From: a virus | Direction: 5' to 3' (one strand) | Virus genome (UHGV): UHGV-0036582 | DNA length: 64,000 nucleotides | Shown here: positions 5,218 to 53,972 of the stretch, in pieces | Numbering within the stretch: the stretch's first letter is position 1 | Layout: each line of letters opens with the position of its first letter | Translations under genes and position numbers: made by a program | The notes under the pieces: generated by a model | The model's database searches: none | The model's input: the letters and a program-made list of their open reading frames with translations, nothing else | Told to the model about the DNA's origin: nothing

Positions 5218-5616
5218 ATGCATACTGCACTTAACGCATCTCGTTCTATTCAGACGATAAGAGACTGTACCAAGATGATCGCATCGGTTCCGTTGCGGCA
5301 TTGGAATGACTCGCTCCAAATTCGTGAAATGAACAAACCGGGTATGCTTAAGGATCAGCGTTTCATCGTTAACCTTAAAAGTGACGTTGAAGAAGGCAAG
5401 TTTACCATCAAATTGTTTGCAGAAATGATGGTGCTCAACAATCGGTTACGTTTTCTTGTTAAGCCAGAAAAACAGTTTCCCGATGTTGTGCGTTGTGAAC
5501 AGGATGCTTTCTATGAGATTGAAAGCAAAATAGCTAAATTTATCAAAGATAAATACCGCGTAGATGTTAAAATAGCGAAACTGGATTCATCTACGGATAT
5601 GCGGCTTGCTAACTAA
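5218..5616 (+). CDS. Hypothetical protein
   Basis: 132-aa ORF, no recognisable motif; stop abuts the next ORF start (TAAATG). Confidence 0.5.
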   Translation: MHTALNASRSIQTIRDCTKMIASVPLRHWNDSLQIREMNKPGMLKDQRFIVNLKSDVEEGKFTIKLFAEMMVLNNRLRFLVKPEKQFPDVVRCEQDAFYEIESKIAKFIKDKYRVDVKIAKLDSSTDMRLAN

Positions 5617-7579: not shown

Positions 7580-7614
7580 TCATGCATTGGCGTAATGTAC
7601 GCGCCAATGCATGA
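7580..7614. terminator. 13-bp inverted repeat between convergent genes, possible bidirectional terminator
   Basis: tcatgcattggcg / cgccaatgcatga arms with a 9-nt loop; no clear T-tract. Confidence 0.4.
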
Positions 7615-15918: not shown

Positions 15919-16130
15919 TCGTATTAAGTAAACGGGAGAAAGAAACGCTTCATGAAATAAGTAAGTGGCCGGAGTTCCCTGAGTACTGGAAGCCTAAAAC
16001 GCGAGCTAAGTTAGAGCGTTTAGGGTTGGTTGCAAACGTTTCTGAAACGTGGTGCTCGGCCAACTACCAGTTAACTGATAAAGGGAAATTATTGCTACAG
16101 CAATTAGTAGAATCAGGAGCCTTTAAATGA
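15915..16130 (+). CDS. Hypothetical small protein
   Basis: 71-aa ORF overlapping the ligase stop. Confidence 0.35.
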   Translation: MIVLSKREKETLHEISKWPEFPEYWKPKTRAKLERLGLVANVSETWCSANYQLTDKGKLLLQQLVESGAFK

Positions 16131-16275
16131 TTCCATACATCTCATTAGCTTTTATGGCTGGCTTCCTTATCGGCTTCGGCATCTGTCGTGATTTGATTAA
16201 GCAGGAACTTAAAACCAAAACACTGTGCATCGGGAAGCGTGTGTATCGGGTAGTTCATGAAACAAAGGTGAGAAA

Positions 16276-16566: not shown

Positions 16567-17342
16567 AAACATCTCGATAAGTATTTACTTACTTATCTTT
16601 TATGTATAAGATGACTTTGTTTTCGTTGAGACGCGACTGTTTGAACTTAAATACAAGTGCAAACGAAGAAGTCTATCTGGCAGTAGCCTAATAAGCCAAA
16701 CACCAGCGAGGTCAGTTTCCAGCCTCGTTACCGAAATGGGACACACTGAGCGAGTGTGATTGCAGAACGCAGGAGGGAACATTCATGTTCCCTCCGATGA
16801 AGTAACAGAATGGGCGGTTGGTATATTTTCAACTCCATATGACTCCCGGATTCTTAGCCACTGACCGCCCATCCTGTTACGTCATTTTGTTCAATTATGT
16901 CGTTTATACTGGGTTAAAAAGCGGCGACGTAGCCCGGCTGGTATGGTTAGCCAGCACACAACGTTGAGGCCATTACATTTTTATCAATTCTAAGGTTCTA
17001 TTCACAGAGATACCGGCGAGCGTTGATATGTAACATGTTGGGCAAACATTCAATCGGAGTAGTGGCCTCAACGTTGTGAAGACGGGATTGTTGTGTAGGT
17101 TTAACCACTGTTGCCATTGGTGCCTGTTTTCACAACAAATGATTCCATACATCACATTGTATAAATTACAAAGTAGGTGCTGTCCTCAGAAACATCATCT
17201 ACTTAAAGATTTTGCCTTCTATTGAGCGAAGTCGAAAACGTCTGGCACTAACGGAAAGTGCAAGTAGCGGTGCGTTTCCTGGCAGAAACTAACACCGCCG
17301 CGATTGGCACTGTTGAGTAATAAATACTGGCAGTGCTGAATT

Positions 17343-17417
17343 GATGGTGTAGCTCAGCGGTAGAGCAGTTGGCTGTTAACCAACTGGTCGGTGGTTCGAA
17401 TCCACCCACCATCGCCA
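17343..17417 (+). tRNA. tRNA-Asn (anticodon GTT)
   Basis: Hand-folded cloverleaf: acceptor gatggtg/caccatc, D-arm gctcagcggtagagc, anticodon stem gttgg/ccaac with loop ctGTTaa, T-arm ggtggttcgaatccacc, encoded CCA. Confidence 0.8.
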
Positions 17418-17422
17418 ATTTA

Positions 17423-17509
17423 GGGGAGTTAGTCCGTAGGGGCAGCGGGGTAGACTGTAAATCTACTGTCATTGCGACTCGGGTGGTTCGACTCCATCAC
17501 TCCCCACCA
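17423..17509 (+). tRNA. tRNA-Tyr (anticodon GTA), long variable arm
   Basis: Acceptor ggggagt/actcccc, anticodon stem gtaga/tctac with loop ctGTAaa, long variable arm, T-loop ttcgact, encoded CCA. Confidence 0.7.
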
Positions 17510-17513
17510 AATT

Positions 17514-17589
17514 GCCGGTTTAGCTCAGTTGGTAGAGCGCCTGCCTTGTAAGCAGGATGTCAGCGGTTCGAGTCCGCTAACCGGCACCA
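17514..17589 (+). tRNA. tRNA-Thr (anticodon TGT)
   Basis: Acceptor gccggtt/aaccggc, D-arm gctcagttggtagagc, anticodon stem cctgc/gcagg with loop ctTGTaa, T-arm agcggttcgagtccgct, CCA. Confidence 0.8.
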
Positions 17590-17814
17590 ATACAACGATA
17601 AGATCATTACGGTTAATCGTCGTTCATGTGCACAATGACTGGTCGAAAGGTAGTGATCTTACCGTTGTGGTGGATTCGCAGACTGATGCGATAGCTTTCT
17701 TGGATGTTAGGGAAATGCGGCCGCAAATCTTCCCTTTCGCGAGCGGTGATCGTCCGTAGTCCTAATTGGCTGCACCGTATGCCGGAGATTCAGTACCGGC
17801 CACCACAACGGCCG

Positions 17815-17901
17815 GAGAGTAGGGAGCATGGTGCTCAAGCGGTCTTGAAAACCGTCCCATTGCGCAAGCGATGATGGTTCGATTCCATTACTCTCCGCCA
17901 G
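17815..17901 (+). tRNA. tRNA-Ser (anticodon TGA), long variable arm
   Basis: Acceptor ggagagt/actctcc, anticodon loop ctTGAaa, long variable arm, T-arm gatggttcgattccatt, CCA; some stems rely on G-U pairs, so less certain. Confidence 0.6.
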
Positions 17902-18092: not shown

Positions 18093-19355
18093 TTACTTTG
18101 CATAGTCGCCCAATTTTAATATTTCGCGCTTATATTCATTAACCATGCTACTGGATTCAGTATAAATTCGATTTAAAAGATTATCGTTATCTTTATTTTC
18201 ATTTATCTTAATTAGTGCTAATTTATATTCATAGTCATCAAATGCCACAATTAAATGGTGGCCTGGGATTATATCTTCGTCACTCTTAAAGTATATATCT
18301 TCAAGTATGTAATCTAGTTGATTAGATTTTCTTTTCTCGATGTAATCTTCAGCCATAGCTATTACATCATTCCTGTCATTTAACCTGTTTTTTTCGGAAG
18401 GCACATCTTCGTAATGTTGCACGATTGAACAACCAATAAGGCGTGGGATGTAAACGTCAAAATGAGTAACTCTATCATTCGCGGTTTTAAGTAGTTCCTC
18501 AAAGTAGTTTCTTACATGTAAAGGCAACTTCTCAAAGTAATCATTAATTATAGGAGAACAAGGAGTTTTATAATTCATAAGAACCGACGGTACGAGCTTT
18601 GGGTGTCGAAACATCCAGTCCCTTTTAACGTCCGATGGAACATAATAACTTTTAATGATATTATCAAAATAATTTATCATTCGAGATTTGAATATTTTGT
18701 TGAATCTAAGGTTTATGAATGTATCCAGATAAGGCATATTTGAATAAGCATCATCAAAAAATATTTCATCATTGAAAAAATCATATTTATTCAATAAACA
18801 ACACAGTTTTTCCGAATTAATATGTTCACAATAATCGATTTTTAATCCAAAGATAGCAATGATCAACTTCATCTGAGGTGGGATTTTAAAAATTAATTGT
18901 GACACATACGCTCTTTTTTCCTTGAGACATTCCCCATCAATATAAAATGAACCATCCACATACTCAAATATATTAATAATATGCTTCACATACTGTATTA
19001 CCTCATGCTGTCTTACCAATGGATAATATAGTCTATGTAACTCATCGCTGTTTAAATTAATTTTGTGTTTATCGATAATTTGTTTTGCAAGAAGACATAA
19101 CTCATCATGTTGATTTAATAAGGAATCAAACCATTGTTTAAATGCACTCTTTCGCATTTCGAACAATGATTCAGTTGTTAATTGAAGGGCTGAAAAAGCT
19201 GCTTTTGCACTTTTTCTCGCTTCGTAGGCATTCCATGCTGTTGCTATAAAAGCAAATGCTGTAGCCAATGTTCCAACAGTTTGACCATTTAAAACAACCC
19301 AATCCCAAAAAATGACGGTGAGCAGTAGTATAATAATGAAAATTAAAAAAGGCAT
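18093..19355 (-). CDS. Low-GC membrane-anchored protein of unknown function (two N-terminal TM helices, about 350-aa cytoplasmic domain)
   Basis: 420-aa ORF, visibly far more AT-rich than its neighbours; TM helices FLIFIIILLLTVIFWDWVVL and LATAFAFIATAWNAY; Asn/Tyr/Phe/Lys/Asp-rich remainder with no recognisable catalytic motif. Confidence 0.6.
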   Translation of the reverse strand: MPFLIFIIILLLTVIFWDWVVLNGQTVGTLATAFAFIATAWNAYEARKSAKAAFSALQLTTESLFEMRKSAFKQWFDSLLNQHDELCLLAKQIIDKHKINLNSDELHRLYYPLVRQHEVIQYVKHIINIFEYVDGSFYIDGECLKEKRAYVSQLIFKIPPQMKLIIAIFGLKIDYCEHINSEKLCCLLNKYDFFNDEIFFDDAYSNMPYLDTFINLRFNKIFKSRMINYFDNIIKSYYVPSDVKRDWMFRHPKLVPSVLMNYKTPCSPIINDYFEKLPLHVRNYFEELLKTANDRVTHFDVYIPRLIGCSIVQHYEDVPSEKNRLNDRNDVIAMAEDYIEKRKSNQLDYILEDIYFKSDEDIIPGHHLIVAFDDYEYKLALIKINENKDNDNLLNRIYTESSSMVNEYKREILKLGDYAK

Positions 19356-19775: not shown

Positions 19776-19779
19776 TTTT

Positions 19780-19805
19780 AACGGCTCACAGGAGCCGTTT
19801 TTATT
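19780..19805 (+). terminator. Rho-independent terminator
   Basis: aacggctc-acag-gagccgtt followed by tttttatt. Confidence 0.75.
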
Positions 19806-19855
19806 CCCACCAAACTCACTCCCGTTTCCCTTAAAATTCAAAAAACAACGTCAAA

Positions 19856-19886
19856 ATGATTCCATACCTACTATGTATGGAATCAT
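19856..19886. promoter_or_regulatory. Candidate tyrosine-recombinase core site: 12-bp perfect inverted repeats around a 7-bp spacer
   Basis: atgattccatac-ctactat-gtatggaatcat, about 100 bp upstream of the recombinase gene; geometry resembles lox/dif-type sites. Confidence 0.4.
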
Positions 19887-19985
19887 TGCTGAAAATGAGT
19901 TACTTTTACTCTTGATCCTATAAGAATCTATGCCTAATATACTGTTTACTTATACAGTGCATCGGCGTAACTCGGTGATTGTCAT

Positions 19986-21089
19986 ATGAAAAATAGCTTT
20001 GACAGAGCACGCGCTGCGGAGAACACCTCAAAAGAGGCGATAGAGTATCTCGAAAGAGCATCTCAAATGCAGGCCGTTATGATCTCCCAGGTCAGCAATG
20101 ACATGAGATTCTCGGACGCATTCATGTTATTCACTCGCTTATCTCTGCTGATAACCAGACGTCGGCCAGAGATCGCTGTTCATTGTATTTTGATACATGT
20201 TTTGCCGCACCTTGCCGATGTAAAAGTAAGTGACATTAATAGGTTCATGGTGAACCAACTGGTCAACCCACTAATACTGGATGGCAAAATTGTTATGGGC
20301 CGCCGCGTTTTCTCTCTGATGAAGCAGTTCCTTAGCTGGTGCGCCTTCCAGGGGATGATAGACGTGTCACCGTTAAACGATATGTCACTTAACAATGTTG
20401 CCGGTGGCGCAAAGCCCACACCTCGCGAGCGGAAGCTGACCGACGCAGAGGTATGGGTGTTCTGGAATATATGGGACTACTTCAATGTGTGCGCTGGTAC
20501 AAAATGGGCGGCCAGGCTATGTCTTGTATCCGCAAGACGACCTGACGAAGTACTGCGGGCTAAAAAAAGTGAGTTCAACCTCCAGCGTGGGGTTTGGAAT
20601 CAAGGCAAGAGAAACAAATCAGCCCGTGAGCATTCTCTGCCTTTAAGCACATTAATGCGCACATGCATTGAAGAGTTATTCGAATATGGTAAAGGCAGCC
20701 AGTGGCTTGTGCCTTCGAATAAAAAAATCGGGAATGATCTTCCGATGTCTAAAGTGGCAATAGCCCAGGCATTACGCCGTATCCTGGAACGACCAGAACT
20801 GATGGAGCTTGAGCCATTTACACCCCGAGATTTGCGTCGTACTGCGCGTAGTTACTTCCCAGCATTAGGCATAAGCCAGGAGGTATCACGCAAAATCATG
20901 AACCACAGTCTTGAGGGGATAGATCGGGTCTACGACCGGCACGATTATATGGACGAGATGCGAGACGCCTTAGAAAGTTTCTCGACGTACATCGCATCAA
21001 TCGTAGAGCAACCGGATTTAGACGAAATTGACCACAAATTCAAGGGAGATCGTCTATCAACAGAGCTTATTCGTGTAAATTTTTCATAG
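19986..21089 (+). CDS. Tyrosine recombinase (integrase or resolvase family)
   Basis: Segments consistent with the catalytic R..K..H.R..H..Y set: VSARRPDEV, PRDLRRTARS, MNHS, RVYDRHDY. Confidence 0.75.
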   Translation: MKNSFDRARAAENTSKEAIEYLERASQMQAVMISQVSNDMRFSDAFMLFTRLSLLITRRRPEIAVHCILIHVLPHLADVKVSDINRFMVNQLVNPLILDGKIVMGRRVFSLMKQFLSWCAFQGMIDVSPLNDMSLNNVAGGAKPTPRERKLTDAEVWVFWNIWDYFNVCAGTKWAARLCLVSARRPDEVLRAKKSEFNLQRGVWNQGKRNKSAREHSLPLSTLMRTCIEELFEYGKGSQWLVPSNKKIGNDLPMSKVAIAQALRRILERPELMELEPFTPRDLRRTARSYFPALGISQEVSRKIMNHSLEGIDRVYDRHDYMDEMRDALESFSTYIASIVEQPDLDEIDHKFKGDRLSTELIRVNFS

Positions 21090-21470
21090 AGACTTTATGG
21101 CCTCAACAACCTTTTGTGATGCGCCTTTCTCTTTACCGAATCGCTCGTTATATGCAGCAAGAACCTGTTTTTCGTCCTCGTTAAGAGGCGCAGTGCCTTC
21201 TTTGTATAAAAATGCTGCGAGTTCAGGTTGGCGTTCTTCCAGCACCATCATCATAAGACGACTTGGCTCAATACCCAGCGCCAGCGCCAGCGGACGAACC
21301 TTATCGATAGGCAAAGGAATTTTGCCACTTTTAATTAAAGAAAGGTTGTTGGCATTTTTATAACCAATAAGTCTAGCTATTTGGGCCTGACTCATAGGTG
21401 AGGATTCAATCAGCCCTGCGATAAAAGCAGCATAGCGACTTTCTATAAATTCAATCTTGTTGTCAGACAT
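21084..21470 (-). CDS. Helix-turn-helix DNA-binding protein, possible transcriptional regulator
   Basis: 128 aa; HTH-like segment SQAQIARLIGYKNANNLSLIKSGK; convergent with the recombinase gene. Confidence 0.5.
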   Translation of the reverse strand: MSDNKIEFIESRYAAFIAGLIESSPMSQAQIARLIGYKNANNLSLIKSGKIPLPIDKVRPLALALGIEPSRLMMMVLEERQPELAAFLYKEGTAPLNEDEKQVLAAYNERFGKEKGASQKVVEAIKSL

Positions 21471-25669: not shown

Positions 25670-28600
25670 CTTCTCACTTGGGGAGTCGGCTCTAAAAGCA
25701 GAAAACGCGGTGAAGATTGCCAGAGAAGCTGGCTACACCGCTGTAATTTCAGCAGATAGCATGAATATTGCGAGCGTTATTCCACTACAACGTGCCGCTG
25801 GTGACGACATGGCGGTTATTTGTGGTGTGAAACTAAACATTGTTGATGATCCCACATACGAGCACCGGGCTAAACTTGCTAAAGAATCTATGAGATGTAT
25901 GGAATCATTAGAGCGGGGACGTAACTACTCGTTTACCGCTCTAATTAAAAATGAGCAAGGATATCGCGACATCTGCGAACTAATGACGGTGGCCAACACA
26001 CGAGAACAGTTCTACTTTGTACCGCGTCTCTCGCTCGAACAGTTGGTTTCTACATATGCCAAAGGCAACATCATCCTGCTCACTTCCGACATCGGTAGCG
26101 TGTTCCAACGCAACGATTTTGCAAAAATCATAAGCTCACTGATTACAGCGGGCGGGAAAGACAACTTCTATAGCGTGGTTTATCCGCACCCTACCCCATT
26201 CTACGACCAGATTAACGTCCGAGCGATGAAAGTAGCCAGCGCACTGAAAATAGAGCCAGTAGCGTTCTATCCCGCTTATTACGAATCGATCGACGATGCA
26301 GACATTAAAGACATTGCGCACATGGTTACGAACAACATAAAAATCGACCAGCCGCATCGTCTGCGTATCCCCCACCAGCGAGATAACGCCATCAATGGTC
26401 GTCGCCATCTCCTTGAGGCGCTTAAAGCCTTCTCCGTTCGCATGGATGTGCCGGTAACAGCTGCAATGGCCTCAACAACGCAGGACTCCATTATCGATGC
26501 CTGCACATGGCGCTGGCATGAATTGCCACCAGCACTGCCCAAGATGGCAGACGACGAACCTGCAACGCTGATGAAACTGGCTGTTGCAGGGCTGCGTAAA
26601 CGTCTTACCACAAAAGAGTTTGGATACACACCACCTGCTTCTGAGAACAGGGTTTATGTTGAGCGGCTAAAGTACGAAATGGACACGCTGACTCGCCTGG
26701 GATTCTGTGGTTACTTCCTGATGGTACGCGATCTGATGAATCACAGCCGTGAAACTGGCATTCCTGTCGGGCCTGGTCGTGGTTCCTCTGCCGGTTCTCT
26801 GGTGGCGTGGTGCATAGGCATAACCAACGTCGACCCAATCCGTCACGGTCTTCTGTTTGAGCGTTTCATCAACCCTGAGCGTCTCGACTTGCCGGATGCG
26901 GACTTGGACTTCAGCCAGGCACGTCGCCATGAGGTGATCGAGTATCTGAATGAACGCTACGGCGAAGATTACGTTGCAGGCATTCCGAACTTCACCTACC
27001 TGGGCGCAGCCTCTGCACTACGTGACACCGCTCGTATTTATGGTGTGGAGTCCGCAGATATGGCGGTATCAAAAGAACTGAAGAACGTCGAGGATGATAG
27101 CCTTCCATTGGAAGAGCTGCGCGAACAACTGGCAAGTCTCGACAAATACGCAACAAAATATCCTGATGCATTCAATGCAGCCTGCAAGTTACAAAGCCTT
27201 ATGCGTGGCTTTGGTAGACATGCGGCAGGGATGATCGTAGCAGGTGTTCCTCTGACAGAACGTACACCGGTTGAACGCCGTGGTGACGCGCGTTGTATCG
27301 CATTTGACAAGCGTTACTGCGAGGCTATGGGCCTAATTAAGCTGGACGTACTTGGTCTGGCAACTCTCGATTTGCTCGATAGTGCAAAACGCTACATAAA
27401 AGAGAACACAGGTGAAGATATCAATCTTGATGCCATTTCTCTTGAAGATCGCAAGGTGCTGGATGGTTTTGCTGCTGGGTACACTCAAGGTGTTTTCCAG
27501 CTTGAATCAGGCCCAATGCGCAAGCTGCTTAAAGATTTAGGTGGTGGAATTGAGCCAATGAGCTTTAAAACGGTTGTTGCTACGACTGCGCTCTTCCGGC
27601 CGGGTCCAATTCAGTCAGGCATGTTGGATGACTATGTTTCTGTAGCCAAAGGCTTTATGACGCCGGAATCATTACACCCCGTTCTTGATGAACTTACCGC
27701 AGAAACAAATGGCGTGATTCTCTATCAGGAACAGACGATGAACGCGACTCGATTGCTTGCTGGCTTCACAATGGCTGAAGCTGACGGCGTTCGTAAAGCG
27801 ATCGGCAAAAAAGACATGGAAAAAATGAAGAGCATGGGCGAGAAGTTCATCGTTCAGGCTCAAGCTGGCTGGATAGACGTTGAGCTGGAAGATGGCACTA
27901 CACAGCGCATTCACCGTGCGGAACATTTTAAATGCGAAGACGGAACTCTGAAAACTGTCGAAGAGGCACTTGAGTACGGCGCAAAACTACCTATAAACGC
28001 AGTACGCGTTACAGCGTCACATCCAGGGCTATCAGAGATGAAAGCGAAGGAGATCTGGACCGCATTCGAAAAGAATGGTGCCTACCAGTTCAACAAATCA
28101 CACTCTGTTGCTTACTCCTTAATCAGTTATCAATCTATGTGGTTGAAAACTCATTATCCCGCGGAGTTCTTCGCTGCTGCTCTCACTATTCTTGGCGAAG
28201 ATAAACACCAGGGGCTGGTTAAAGATGCGCTGACCTATGGTATTCGCGTATTGCCACCAGACGTTAACGTGTCATCTAACCGAATCGAGATCCGCACGCT
28301 TGAAGATGGCAGCCAGGTGCTGTATGCGCCCTTCTCTGCTGTGAAAGGGTGTTCTGAGAATGGCTGCCAAGCCATCATGAGAGCGCGAGAAAAAGTTGGC
28401 GGCAAATTCGAGTCACTGGCGCAATTCGAAGAAGCTGTCGAGAAACGTGCCTGTAATAGTCGAGTGCGCGAATCACTGCAAAAAGTAGGTGCGTTTGCAT
28501 CCATCGAGCCAGGTAGTCTGCCAGCAACTGATCCAGAGCGTCTCCGCGACCAGGCTGAATTGATGGGAAACCTTGTCATAGACGCAGTTAAAGCCTCACG

Positions 28601-53934: not shown

Positions 53935-53972
53935 AAAGCCTACTTTAAAAAGTTTAAAGTAGGCTTTCTTTT
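53935..53972 (+). terminator. Rho-independent terminator
   Basis: aaagcctactttaaa-aag-tttaaagtaggcttt then ctttt. Confidence 0.7.

Follow-up and report, generated by a model that had tools for sequence, protein, structure and literature searches.

A lox-like palindrome beside the tyrosine recombinase gene of an SSU5-type phage-plasmid and its probable role in multimer resolution

The stretch of viral DNA examined here (UHGV virus genome UHGV-0036582; 64,000 nucleotides, referred to throughout as the window) is a phage-plasmid of the SSU5/pHCM2/pMT1 type, and carries a perfect palindrome directly upstream of int, a gene encoding a tyrosine recombinase (Int). Comparative analysis indicated that this palindrome is probably the core recombination site of the adjoining recombinase, and that the two probably form a single-site module for multimer resolution. 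Support for this assignment came from the combination of an intact recombinase that lacks an arm-binding domain with a single, symmetric site that co-evolves and migrates with it. Plasmid-only residence and a spacer that drifts and flips freely gave further support, being hard to fit to a phage attachment site (attP) that must match a fixed bacterial one (attB). The likeness to Cre/loxP is functional, not phylogenetic.

Sequence and position of the palindrome

An initial annotation had placed perfect 12-bp arms around a 7-bp spacer at positions 19856–19886, and the window reads exactly so, i.e., ATGATTCCATAC-CTACTAT-GTATGGAATCAT. The arms are 13 bp long in this window because A19855 also pairs with T19887, and the palindrome in full comprises 33 bp at 19855–19887 (AATGATTCCATAC-CTACTAT-GTATGGAATCATT). 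The left arm (19855–19867, plus strand) is the presumed recombinase-binding element, and its 12-bp core was unvarying across 82 loci representing 57 unique sequences; the right arm (19875–19887, minus strand) is, by direct reading, its reverse complement. Between them, the central spacer (19868–19874) is presumed to be the region of strand exchange, or overlap; its length is constant, while its sequence varies. The palindrome lies 99 bp from the recombinase start codon at 19986, and since the right arm ends at 19886 or 19887, the annotated location about 100 bp 5' of the open reading frame (ORF) was accurate. The annotation had also likened the arm and spacer lengths to those of tyrosine recombinase core sites; at 13/7/13 bp, the palindrome has the architecture of a simple, Cre/Flp-type target, in which inverted elements surround an asymmetric centre of 6–8 bp. 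There were no direct (arm-type) repeats around it.

A single instance of the full pattern was found in the window, and 100 shuffled sequences gave none, even when three mismatches were allowed. When perfect arms of at least 12 bp with a spacer of 4–10 bp were counted, three inverted repeats were found in the window, against approximately 0.05 expected from 40 Markov simulations. The remaining two were a bidirectional terminator at 53935–53967 and a perfect 13-bp inverted repeat with a 9-nt spacer at 7580–7614 (TCATGCATTGGCG-TAATGTACG-CGCCAATGCATGA), which has no relation to the recombinase site. The full site was also single-copy when the rest of Cyrano, a close relative of about 108 kb, was included; a second full site, such as inversion or excision would employ, was found neither in the window nor in the rest of that relative.

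Conservation of the arms and behaviour of the spacer

Searching with the Int protein recovered 75 close relatives, and every one possessed perfect 12-bp arms and a 7-bp spacer, with one full site each. When 57 unique segments of 181 nt, drawn from 82 loci, were aligned, the arms were the sole contiguous stretch that was fully invariant; they are under selective constraint. The spacer kept its length of 7 bp in more than 190 loci, across clades, while its sequence took at least 19 forms. Among these were at least five pairs that are exact reverse complements of one another (CTACTAT/ATAGTAG, CTATTAA/TTAATAG, CTATAGA/TCTATAG, TAATTAC/GTAATTA and TTATATA/TATATAA), such flips being seen in loci L002, L007, L040, L068 and those numbered L098 and above. 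L040 and L002 (PhiR41_1) have both flanks in common and yet carry opposite spacers; therefore, the flip occurs in situ. Small inversions are familiar from stem-loops in general, and the flips were interpreted on this basis as the likely product of hairpin-mediated template switching.

The spacer type tracked the int clade rather than the left flank, and spacers varied among relatives within one host species. Judging from these alignments, selection acts neither on the sequence of the spacer nor on the direction in which it lies relative to int. Spacer drift, along with at least five flips relative to int, would be tolerated only if the recombination partner were a copy of the site itself.

Occurrence of the site and recombinase on other replicons

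Homologs of Int with 44–60% identity were all accompanied by a palindrome of 12–14/7/12–14 bp, situated 43–108 bp upstream of the ATG. In a 108-kb viral contig (L077) and in Nissabacter, the arms were TGATTCCATAC and the spacer TTATATA. Another form, ATGACTCCAGAC-N7-GTCTGGAGTCAT, was present in the Pectobacterium plasmid Drgb1 and a Providencia phage-plasmid, and also in a 165-kb Erwinia plasmid, a 274-kb Pantoea plasmid and Rahnella megaplasmids of 500 kb. Between clades, each arm differed by two changes (T to C and T to G), which were mirrored in both arms. Small Photorhabdus plasmids had a hybrid arm form, and this variant breaks the pairing of the arms.

On the Erwinia, Pantoea and Rahnella plasmids, which are not phage elements, the neighbouring genes were unrelated (H-NS, a Qnr-like protein, a major facilitator superfamily transporter, type VI secretion and a chemoreceptor); therefore, int is the sole gene shared alongside the palindrome. 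In the window, int is followed by a convergent gene for a helix-turn-helix (HTH) 'putative repressor', which does not lie beside int in those three plasmid groups, and the same comparison therefore excludes the HTH protein as the one that binds the palindrome. The candidate role of operator for this repressor was rejected accordingly, as replicons without the HTH gene still have the palindrome and no copy of the motif occurs upstream of the HTH gene.

The association was also approached from the site, by searching viral contigs with a degenerate site pattern. This produced 117 new loci, in 110 of which int lay within 200 bp of the site. Of the exceptions, five loci ended before int could be reached, one was split by an intron, and one was an orphan. 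The orphan, at 5271–5299 of L212 (TGACTCCAGAC-CTCGTGA-GTCTGGAGTCA), is accompanied at best by a decayed int remnant (E about 0.7). A group II intron (Rfam RF02005, 183 bits) occupies 13247–13472 of L161, a Klebsiella-type relative, directly after the LexA box and before int. The palindrome and int are thus co-inherited, and the proposal that the former is the cognate site of the latter was upheld by the frozen arms, by the common architecture alongside homologs of 44–60% identity and by the adjacency of int in the site-first loci.

The palindrome folds into a 13-bp stem with a 7-nt loop (-11.9 kcal/mol, z = -7.6), which raises the prospect that it acts as a nucleic-acid hairpin, whether as an RNA stem-loop, a terminator or processing signal, a DNA cruciform or a single-strand signal. 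The mirrored changes between clades preserve pairing, and flipping of the loop is typical of hairpins. Such a role was nevertheless judged extremely improbable, given that the stem is frozen within clades, hundreds of plasmids showing neither compensatory nor wobble changes in it, that the Photorhabdus variant abolishes pairing, and that a 12–15-mer of the arm is conserved as lone copies without a pairing partner (see below). Nor did the palindrome match Rfam, and no T-run follows the stem; for these two reasons, and because the preceding glutaredoxin gene has a separate terminator hairpin of its own (19780–19799), an intrinsic terminator was also rejected.

The recombinase

The int gene (19986–21089, plus strand) encodes 367 aa comprising a core-binding and a catalytic domain. 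Its product exceeded the Pfam threshold for PF00589 (Phage_integrase; 38.3 bits against a cut-off of 27.1), and in an alignment of 42 sequences R185, R284 and Y316 were invariant, and H307 nearly so. The ORF downstream of the palindrome therefore is the tyrosine recombinase that it had been taken for. The Int family is without the arm-binding domain PF13356, which is present in its nearest outgroup, the P4-like integrases (34% identity at most).

An AlphaFold (AF2) model of Int had a predicted local distance difference test score of 85 and a helical N-terminus. Its best Foldseek match was to residues 75–356 of lambda Int (E 8e-7), followed by Tn1549 Int and XerH; the integron integrase IntI was also matched, while Cre came far lower (E ≥0.07). 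A phmmer search of the PDB found no solved relative of Int at E values up to 0.01, Cre included, and there was a weak match to NCBIfam PRK09692. By sequence and fold, Int belongs to the lambda/P4-Int lineage and not to the Cre family proper. Hence, the Cre/lox analogy drawn by the initial annotation extends to the logic alone, and fails in lineage and in the spacer, which is 7 bp rather than 8 bp.

An arm-like sequence, TGATTCCATAC on the minus strand, was observed within int itself, 606 nt from the ATG, in Klebsiella and L077 relatives (L003 4736–4746; L077 10607–10617). It encodes a conserved VWNQ motif. The corresponding position in the window (20592–20603) has two mismatches, and for that reason the resemblance may be a coincidence of coding.

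Plasmid-only distribution

Searches with tblastn recovered Int from 1,078 PLSDB plasmids, mostly 105–115 kb in length, from Klebsiella, Escherichia, Enterobacter, Yersinia and Salmonella. Among 5,426 complete E. coli genomes, int and the site occurred together in 252 (about 5%), at 255 places, all of which were plasmids; there was no chromosomal instance. The 39-bp region of the site, when searched alone in the same genomes, matched only those same plasmids and no chromosome. Host genera other than E. coli were covered through plasmid and contig collections. The search for the core in related elements and the host chromosome, which had been suggested with the initial annotation, therefore found the site with int on plasmids and no copy in an E. 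coli chromosome. The arrangement fits that of a multimer-resolution system, with a single site, an extrachromosomal element and an adjoining recombinase gene.

These results bear on the view that the palindrome is the core of an attP, at which Int integrates the element into a chromosome, for instance at a tRNA gene, in certain hosts or circumstances. Several features would suit it. Int is of the lambda/P4 integrase lineage by fold and by remote sequence similarity; the lambda overlap region is 7 bp, the same length as the spacer here; control by LexA, described below, would befit a switch between excision and integration; and one lone copy of the arm abuts a tRNA gene in L077. In addition, a few identical Int proteins were found on contigs of 0.2–0.9 Mb, and these may also count against a strictly plasmid-borne resolution system. 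Nonetheless, none of the 255 E. coli copies was integrated and the site itself was never chromosomal there, while some 1,000 plasmid records carry Int. The protein is without an arm-binding domain and the palindrome without arm-type repeats, perfectly symmetric arms are atypical of attP cores, and a spacer that differs within one host species, and flips, is a poor fit to a fixed attB overlap. An attP was considered very unlikely on these grounds. Integration at a tRNA gene, which the initial annotation had kept in play, drew no support within E. coli. The annotation's preference for dimer resolution over an integrase agrees with the plasmid-only distribution, the domain architecture and the varying spacer; that Int resolves dimers is itself a prediction from these sequence comparisons.

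The int promoter and LexA box

A putative sigma-70 promoter of int was identified by direct reading on the plus strand, with a -35 element (TTGATC, 19912–19917) separated by 17 bp from a -10 element (TAATAT, 19935–19940). It matches the consensus at 8 of 12 positions and is kept in a Klebsiella relative; a strict scan did not call it. Overlapping the putative -10 element is a consensus match to the LexA (SOS) box, TACTGTTTACTTATACAGTG, at 19940–19959. The pattern ACTGT-N8-ACAGT occurs nowhere else in the window, where 0.03 copies were expected. The box is conserved in the Klebsiella relative; pJN2-26 retains CTGT-N8-ACAG with different inner bases, and L077 lacks the box. Its presence predicts that int is induced during the SOS response. 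As int is convergent with the repressor gene and overlaps it, an SOS-induced int transcript could interfere with expression of the repressor.

On the other side of the palindrome, 10–25 bp to the left, there is a weakly conserved A-rich motif resembling AGAWTTYAAAAAA (19831–19846), which recurs in left flanks that are otherwise unrelated. It may serve as an accessory element or in bending, or may be where the module ends on that side.

A proposed mechanism and its known counterparts

If the palindrome is a multimer-resolution site, each arm of 12–13 bp would be bound by one Int monomer, and two sites occupied in this way would assemble into a tetrameric synapse. Strand exchange would then proceed across the asymmetric 7-bp spacer, as in Cre/loxP or the core reaction of lambda Int. 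With one site per replicon, the only partner naturally available to it is the same site repeated in a dimer or multimer of the plasmid, in which both copies would automatically be direct repeats with identical spacers. Recombination between them would convert multimers into monomers, and thereby steady the inheritance of a low-copy phage-plasmid prophage. The LexA box would supply more Int during the SOS response, when RecA-driven multimerisation and prophage induction happen. Int might also help, in a minor way, to circularise infecting DNA that is terminally redundant.

Precedents for such a system exist among phage-plasmids. Like Cre/loxP of P1, Dre/rox, Vika/vox and VCre/VloxP, Int is a phage-plasmid tyrosine recombinase with its target beside the gene; it further shares with Cre/loxP the perfect 13-bp inverted arms, the short asymmetric spacer, a single site per replicon and the lack of accessory arm-type sites. 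The role of Cre/loxP in P1 is multimer resolution, and in the SSU5 group of phage-plasmids tyrosine recombinases count among the persistent genes (PMC7969092). Palindromes beside Cre-type recombinase genes proved to be active targets in approximately 50% of tested cases (PMC10250229). The present system departs from Cre/loxP in its 7-bp spacer, in an unrelated arm sequence, in the LexA box on its promoter and in the lone half-sites nearby, and the two recombinases have no detectable sequence similarity. Conversely, Int resembles the lambda/P4 integrases in lineage and differs from them in having neither PF13356 nor arm-type repeats, in its perfectly symmetric arms and in never being integrated in E. 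coli.

Another plasmid 'integrase' with a short, perfect palindrome is IntXO of Bacillus anthracis pXO1. According to PMC5567495 and its reference 8, IntXO and its 37-bp palindromic target (PSL) are reported to be a component of plasmid maintenance; the pair works as a simple two-site excision tool (PMC5567495). IntXO/PSL belongs to a Firmicutes plasmid and has an unrelated site sequence. TnpI/IRS of Tn4430, ResD/rfsF of F and Rsd/crs are likewise tyrosine resolvases that act on direct repeats of a site adjoining the gene. The extra motifs of TnpI are accessory sites no more than about 100 bp from the core, whereas the lone half-sites described below are 2.7–6 kb away. That TnpI employs additional copies of the motif it binds, beyond the inverted core, is described in PMC2847244.

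A Xer-type site, of the cer or dif kind, was rejected. The sequence of the palindrome is unrelated to XerC/XerD arms (GGTGCG..., ...TTATGTTAAAT), and no Xer-type site was found in the window, which contains two XerD-arm-like matches at chance level, neither of them with a XerC arm.

Lone half-sites and a possible regulatory role

Three exact, lone copies of the 12-mer arm, at 16127(+), 17139(+) and 25897(-), were absent from the initial annotation. Each extends to ATGATTCCATACATC. The first (16127–16141, plus strand) falls at the start codon of a 50-aa ORF; the second (17139–17153, plus strand) is in non-coding sequence about 200 bp upstream of a tRNA cluster; and the third (25894–25908, minus strand) runs antisense inside dnaE, the gene for the DNA polymerase III alpha subunit. 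They are the only other copies of the arm in the element of about 108 kb, and their inner ends face the palindrome. In relatives, they stand out as invariant islands within flanks that are 65–82% identical (65–96% at the first of them); at the dnaE site, TGTATGGAATCATT is invariant while the adjoining codons vary at 79–82% identity. Drgb1, of the ATGACTCCAGAC clade, has no lone half-sites in the 50 kb searched, including those of the covarying form, and so a covariation test could not link lone sites to Int; nor were any found in the megaplasmid loci. The conservation of these elements suggests that Int also recognises and binds specific DNA sequences elsewhere than at the crossover site.

This evidence would suit a reading of the palindrome mainly as a regulatory operator for Int or some other dimeric protein, one that would govern int, the tRNA operon and dnaE (in antisense), with recombination absent or secondary. 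A lone half-site cannot recombine, and yet ATGATTCCATACATC is invariant within diverged flanks, dnaE included. The palindrome is positioned some 25 bp upstream of the putative -35 element of int, and phage repressors with a recombinase fold do exist, e.g., SroF of phi3T, which ranked 35th among the Foldseek matches. Against this, the palindrome is universal, whereas lone sites are missing from the clade and the megaplasmids noted above; it is placed upstream of the promoter and not over it; its AT-rich, asymmetric 7-bp spacer and 12–13-bp arms match recombinase core sites; and catalytic residues, among them the tyrosine nucleophile, are conserved across the Int family. A predominantly regulatory role was thus thought unlikely. 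Operator and recombination site can, in any case, coexist.

Several observations weigh against multimer resolution as the function of the palindrome. The loci examined contained no hybrid sites, no resolved or unresolved dimers and no junctions. Frozen arms, a free spacer and fixed spacing would equally be expected of a symmetric operator bound by a dimeric protein, and the three conserved lone half-sites would be superfluous for simple resolution, hinting at a DNA-binding role beyond it. Accessory sites that impose selectivity for resolution are usual in classical resolution systems, and none was evident here apart from the weak A-rich motif. Finally, SOS control is unusual for a housekeeping resolvase.

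One way to accommodate the lone half-sites is a dual function, by which Int resolves multimers at the palindrome and also binds the three half-sites as an SOS-inducible regulator or architectural protein. This was regarded as doubtful; were it true, SSU5-type phage-plasmids would have their maintenance tied to the programme of lysis-lysogeny or of replication. A possible route would be int transcription, released by LexA, running antisense into the convergent repressor gene.

A cargo hotspot beside the site

Homology among relatives ends approximately 25 bp to the left of the left arm. Between the glutaredoxin terminator and the site module (19776–19830) lies a cargo hotspot, which is empty in the window; in relatives, the interval from glutaredoxin to the site ranges from 83 bp to over 1.7 kb and comprises at least 12 unrelated types of flank. 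Its contents elsewhere (L001 4410–5285; L003 2225–4000; L096 1967–3130) were unrelated genes, for example a YafO-family toxin pair, and its right-hand edge is marked by the weak A-rich motif. In Cyrano, the hotspot gene CYRAN_43 is divergent from int and is reported to be expressed 723-fold above background (PMC9928086).

An intermolecular platform could account for this pattern, either through integron-like capture of circular cargo beside int upon SOS induction, or through the fusion of replicons that have compatible sites. The abrupt end of homology and the variety of unrelated cargo invite comparison with integrons, in which a tyrosine recombinase gene with a LexA box similarly has its attI site just upstream and a variable gene region beyond. 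Integron integrases are LexA-controlled, and the LexA box would predict such control for int. The strong expression of the divergent Cyrano gene is in keeping with a platform too, and one arm type is common to phage-plasmids and megaplasmids. Yet no second site, full or degenerate, flanks any cargo, matches with up to two mismatches occurring at chance level; cargo genes are in mixed orientations; spacer type follows the int clade and not the left flank; and hotspots of this sort are common in phages without any involvement of a recombinase. A platform is consequently very improbable. An integron in the strict sense was rejected, there being no second or attC-like site in the variable regions in addition to the mixed orientations; the Foldseek match to IntI (2a3v) was also weaker than that to lambda Int.

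Gene neighbourhood

The records nearest to the window were Escherichia phage CMS-2020a, Cyrano (= pLF82) and PhiR41_1, and Klebsiella phage-plasmids had about 73% DNA identity to it. Cyrano is a replicating plasmid, with some 5.5 copies in each cell, and can be induced with ciprofloxacin (PMC9928086). In its annotation, Int is the sole site-specific recombinase, the 'RuvC' being a junction resolvase; the annotation further lists ParA, RepA and several toxin-antitoxin pairs.

Upstream of the site, the gene order is DNA ligase, small ORFs, four tRNA genes, a 420-aa ORF and glutaredoxin with its own terminator. From the site onwards, the palindrome is followed by int, the convergent HTH gene (21084–21470, minus strand), which has a 6-nt overlap with the 3' end of int and is described for context only, a 70-aa ORF, CobT-like and CobS-like genes, and dnaE. 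The tRNA cluster (17343–17900) contains genes for Asn, Tyr, Thr and Ser, against three in Cyrano, where Tyr is missing. The 420-aa ORF (18093–19355, minus strand) had no Pfam or PADLOC match and is missing at this position from Cyrano. A non-coding region of about 770 bp (16570–17340), located 5' of the tRNA cluster, includes one of the lone half-sites beside TGTATAAAT, which resembles an extended -10 element; an Rfam match here to transfer-messenger RNA (16640–16742) was below threshold (17 bits, E 0.026).

Implications

A literature search found no paper that describes this site, or the function proposed here, in SSU5-type elements. Phage-plasmids of this type are very common, Yersinia pestis pMT1 and Salmonella Typhi pHCM2 being among them, and carry resistance and toxin cargo. 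Assigning a site to Int corrects a misleading annotation as an 'integrase' and marks the fixed edge of a cargo hotspot. With its 13/7/13-bp architecture, an enzyme of lambda-Int lineage and two natural arm specificities (ATGATTCCATAC and ATGACTCCAGAC), the system is a candidate for use in genome engineering as an orthogonal recombinase/target pair. Both the SOS box and the conserved half-sites that stand alone offer new leads. Above all, a defined 33-bp target for the 'integrase' core gene would explain how low-copy prophage-plasmids could stay monomeric.

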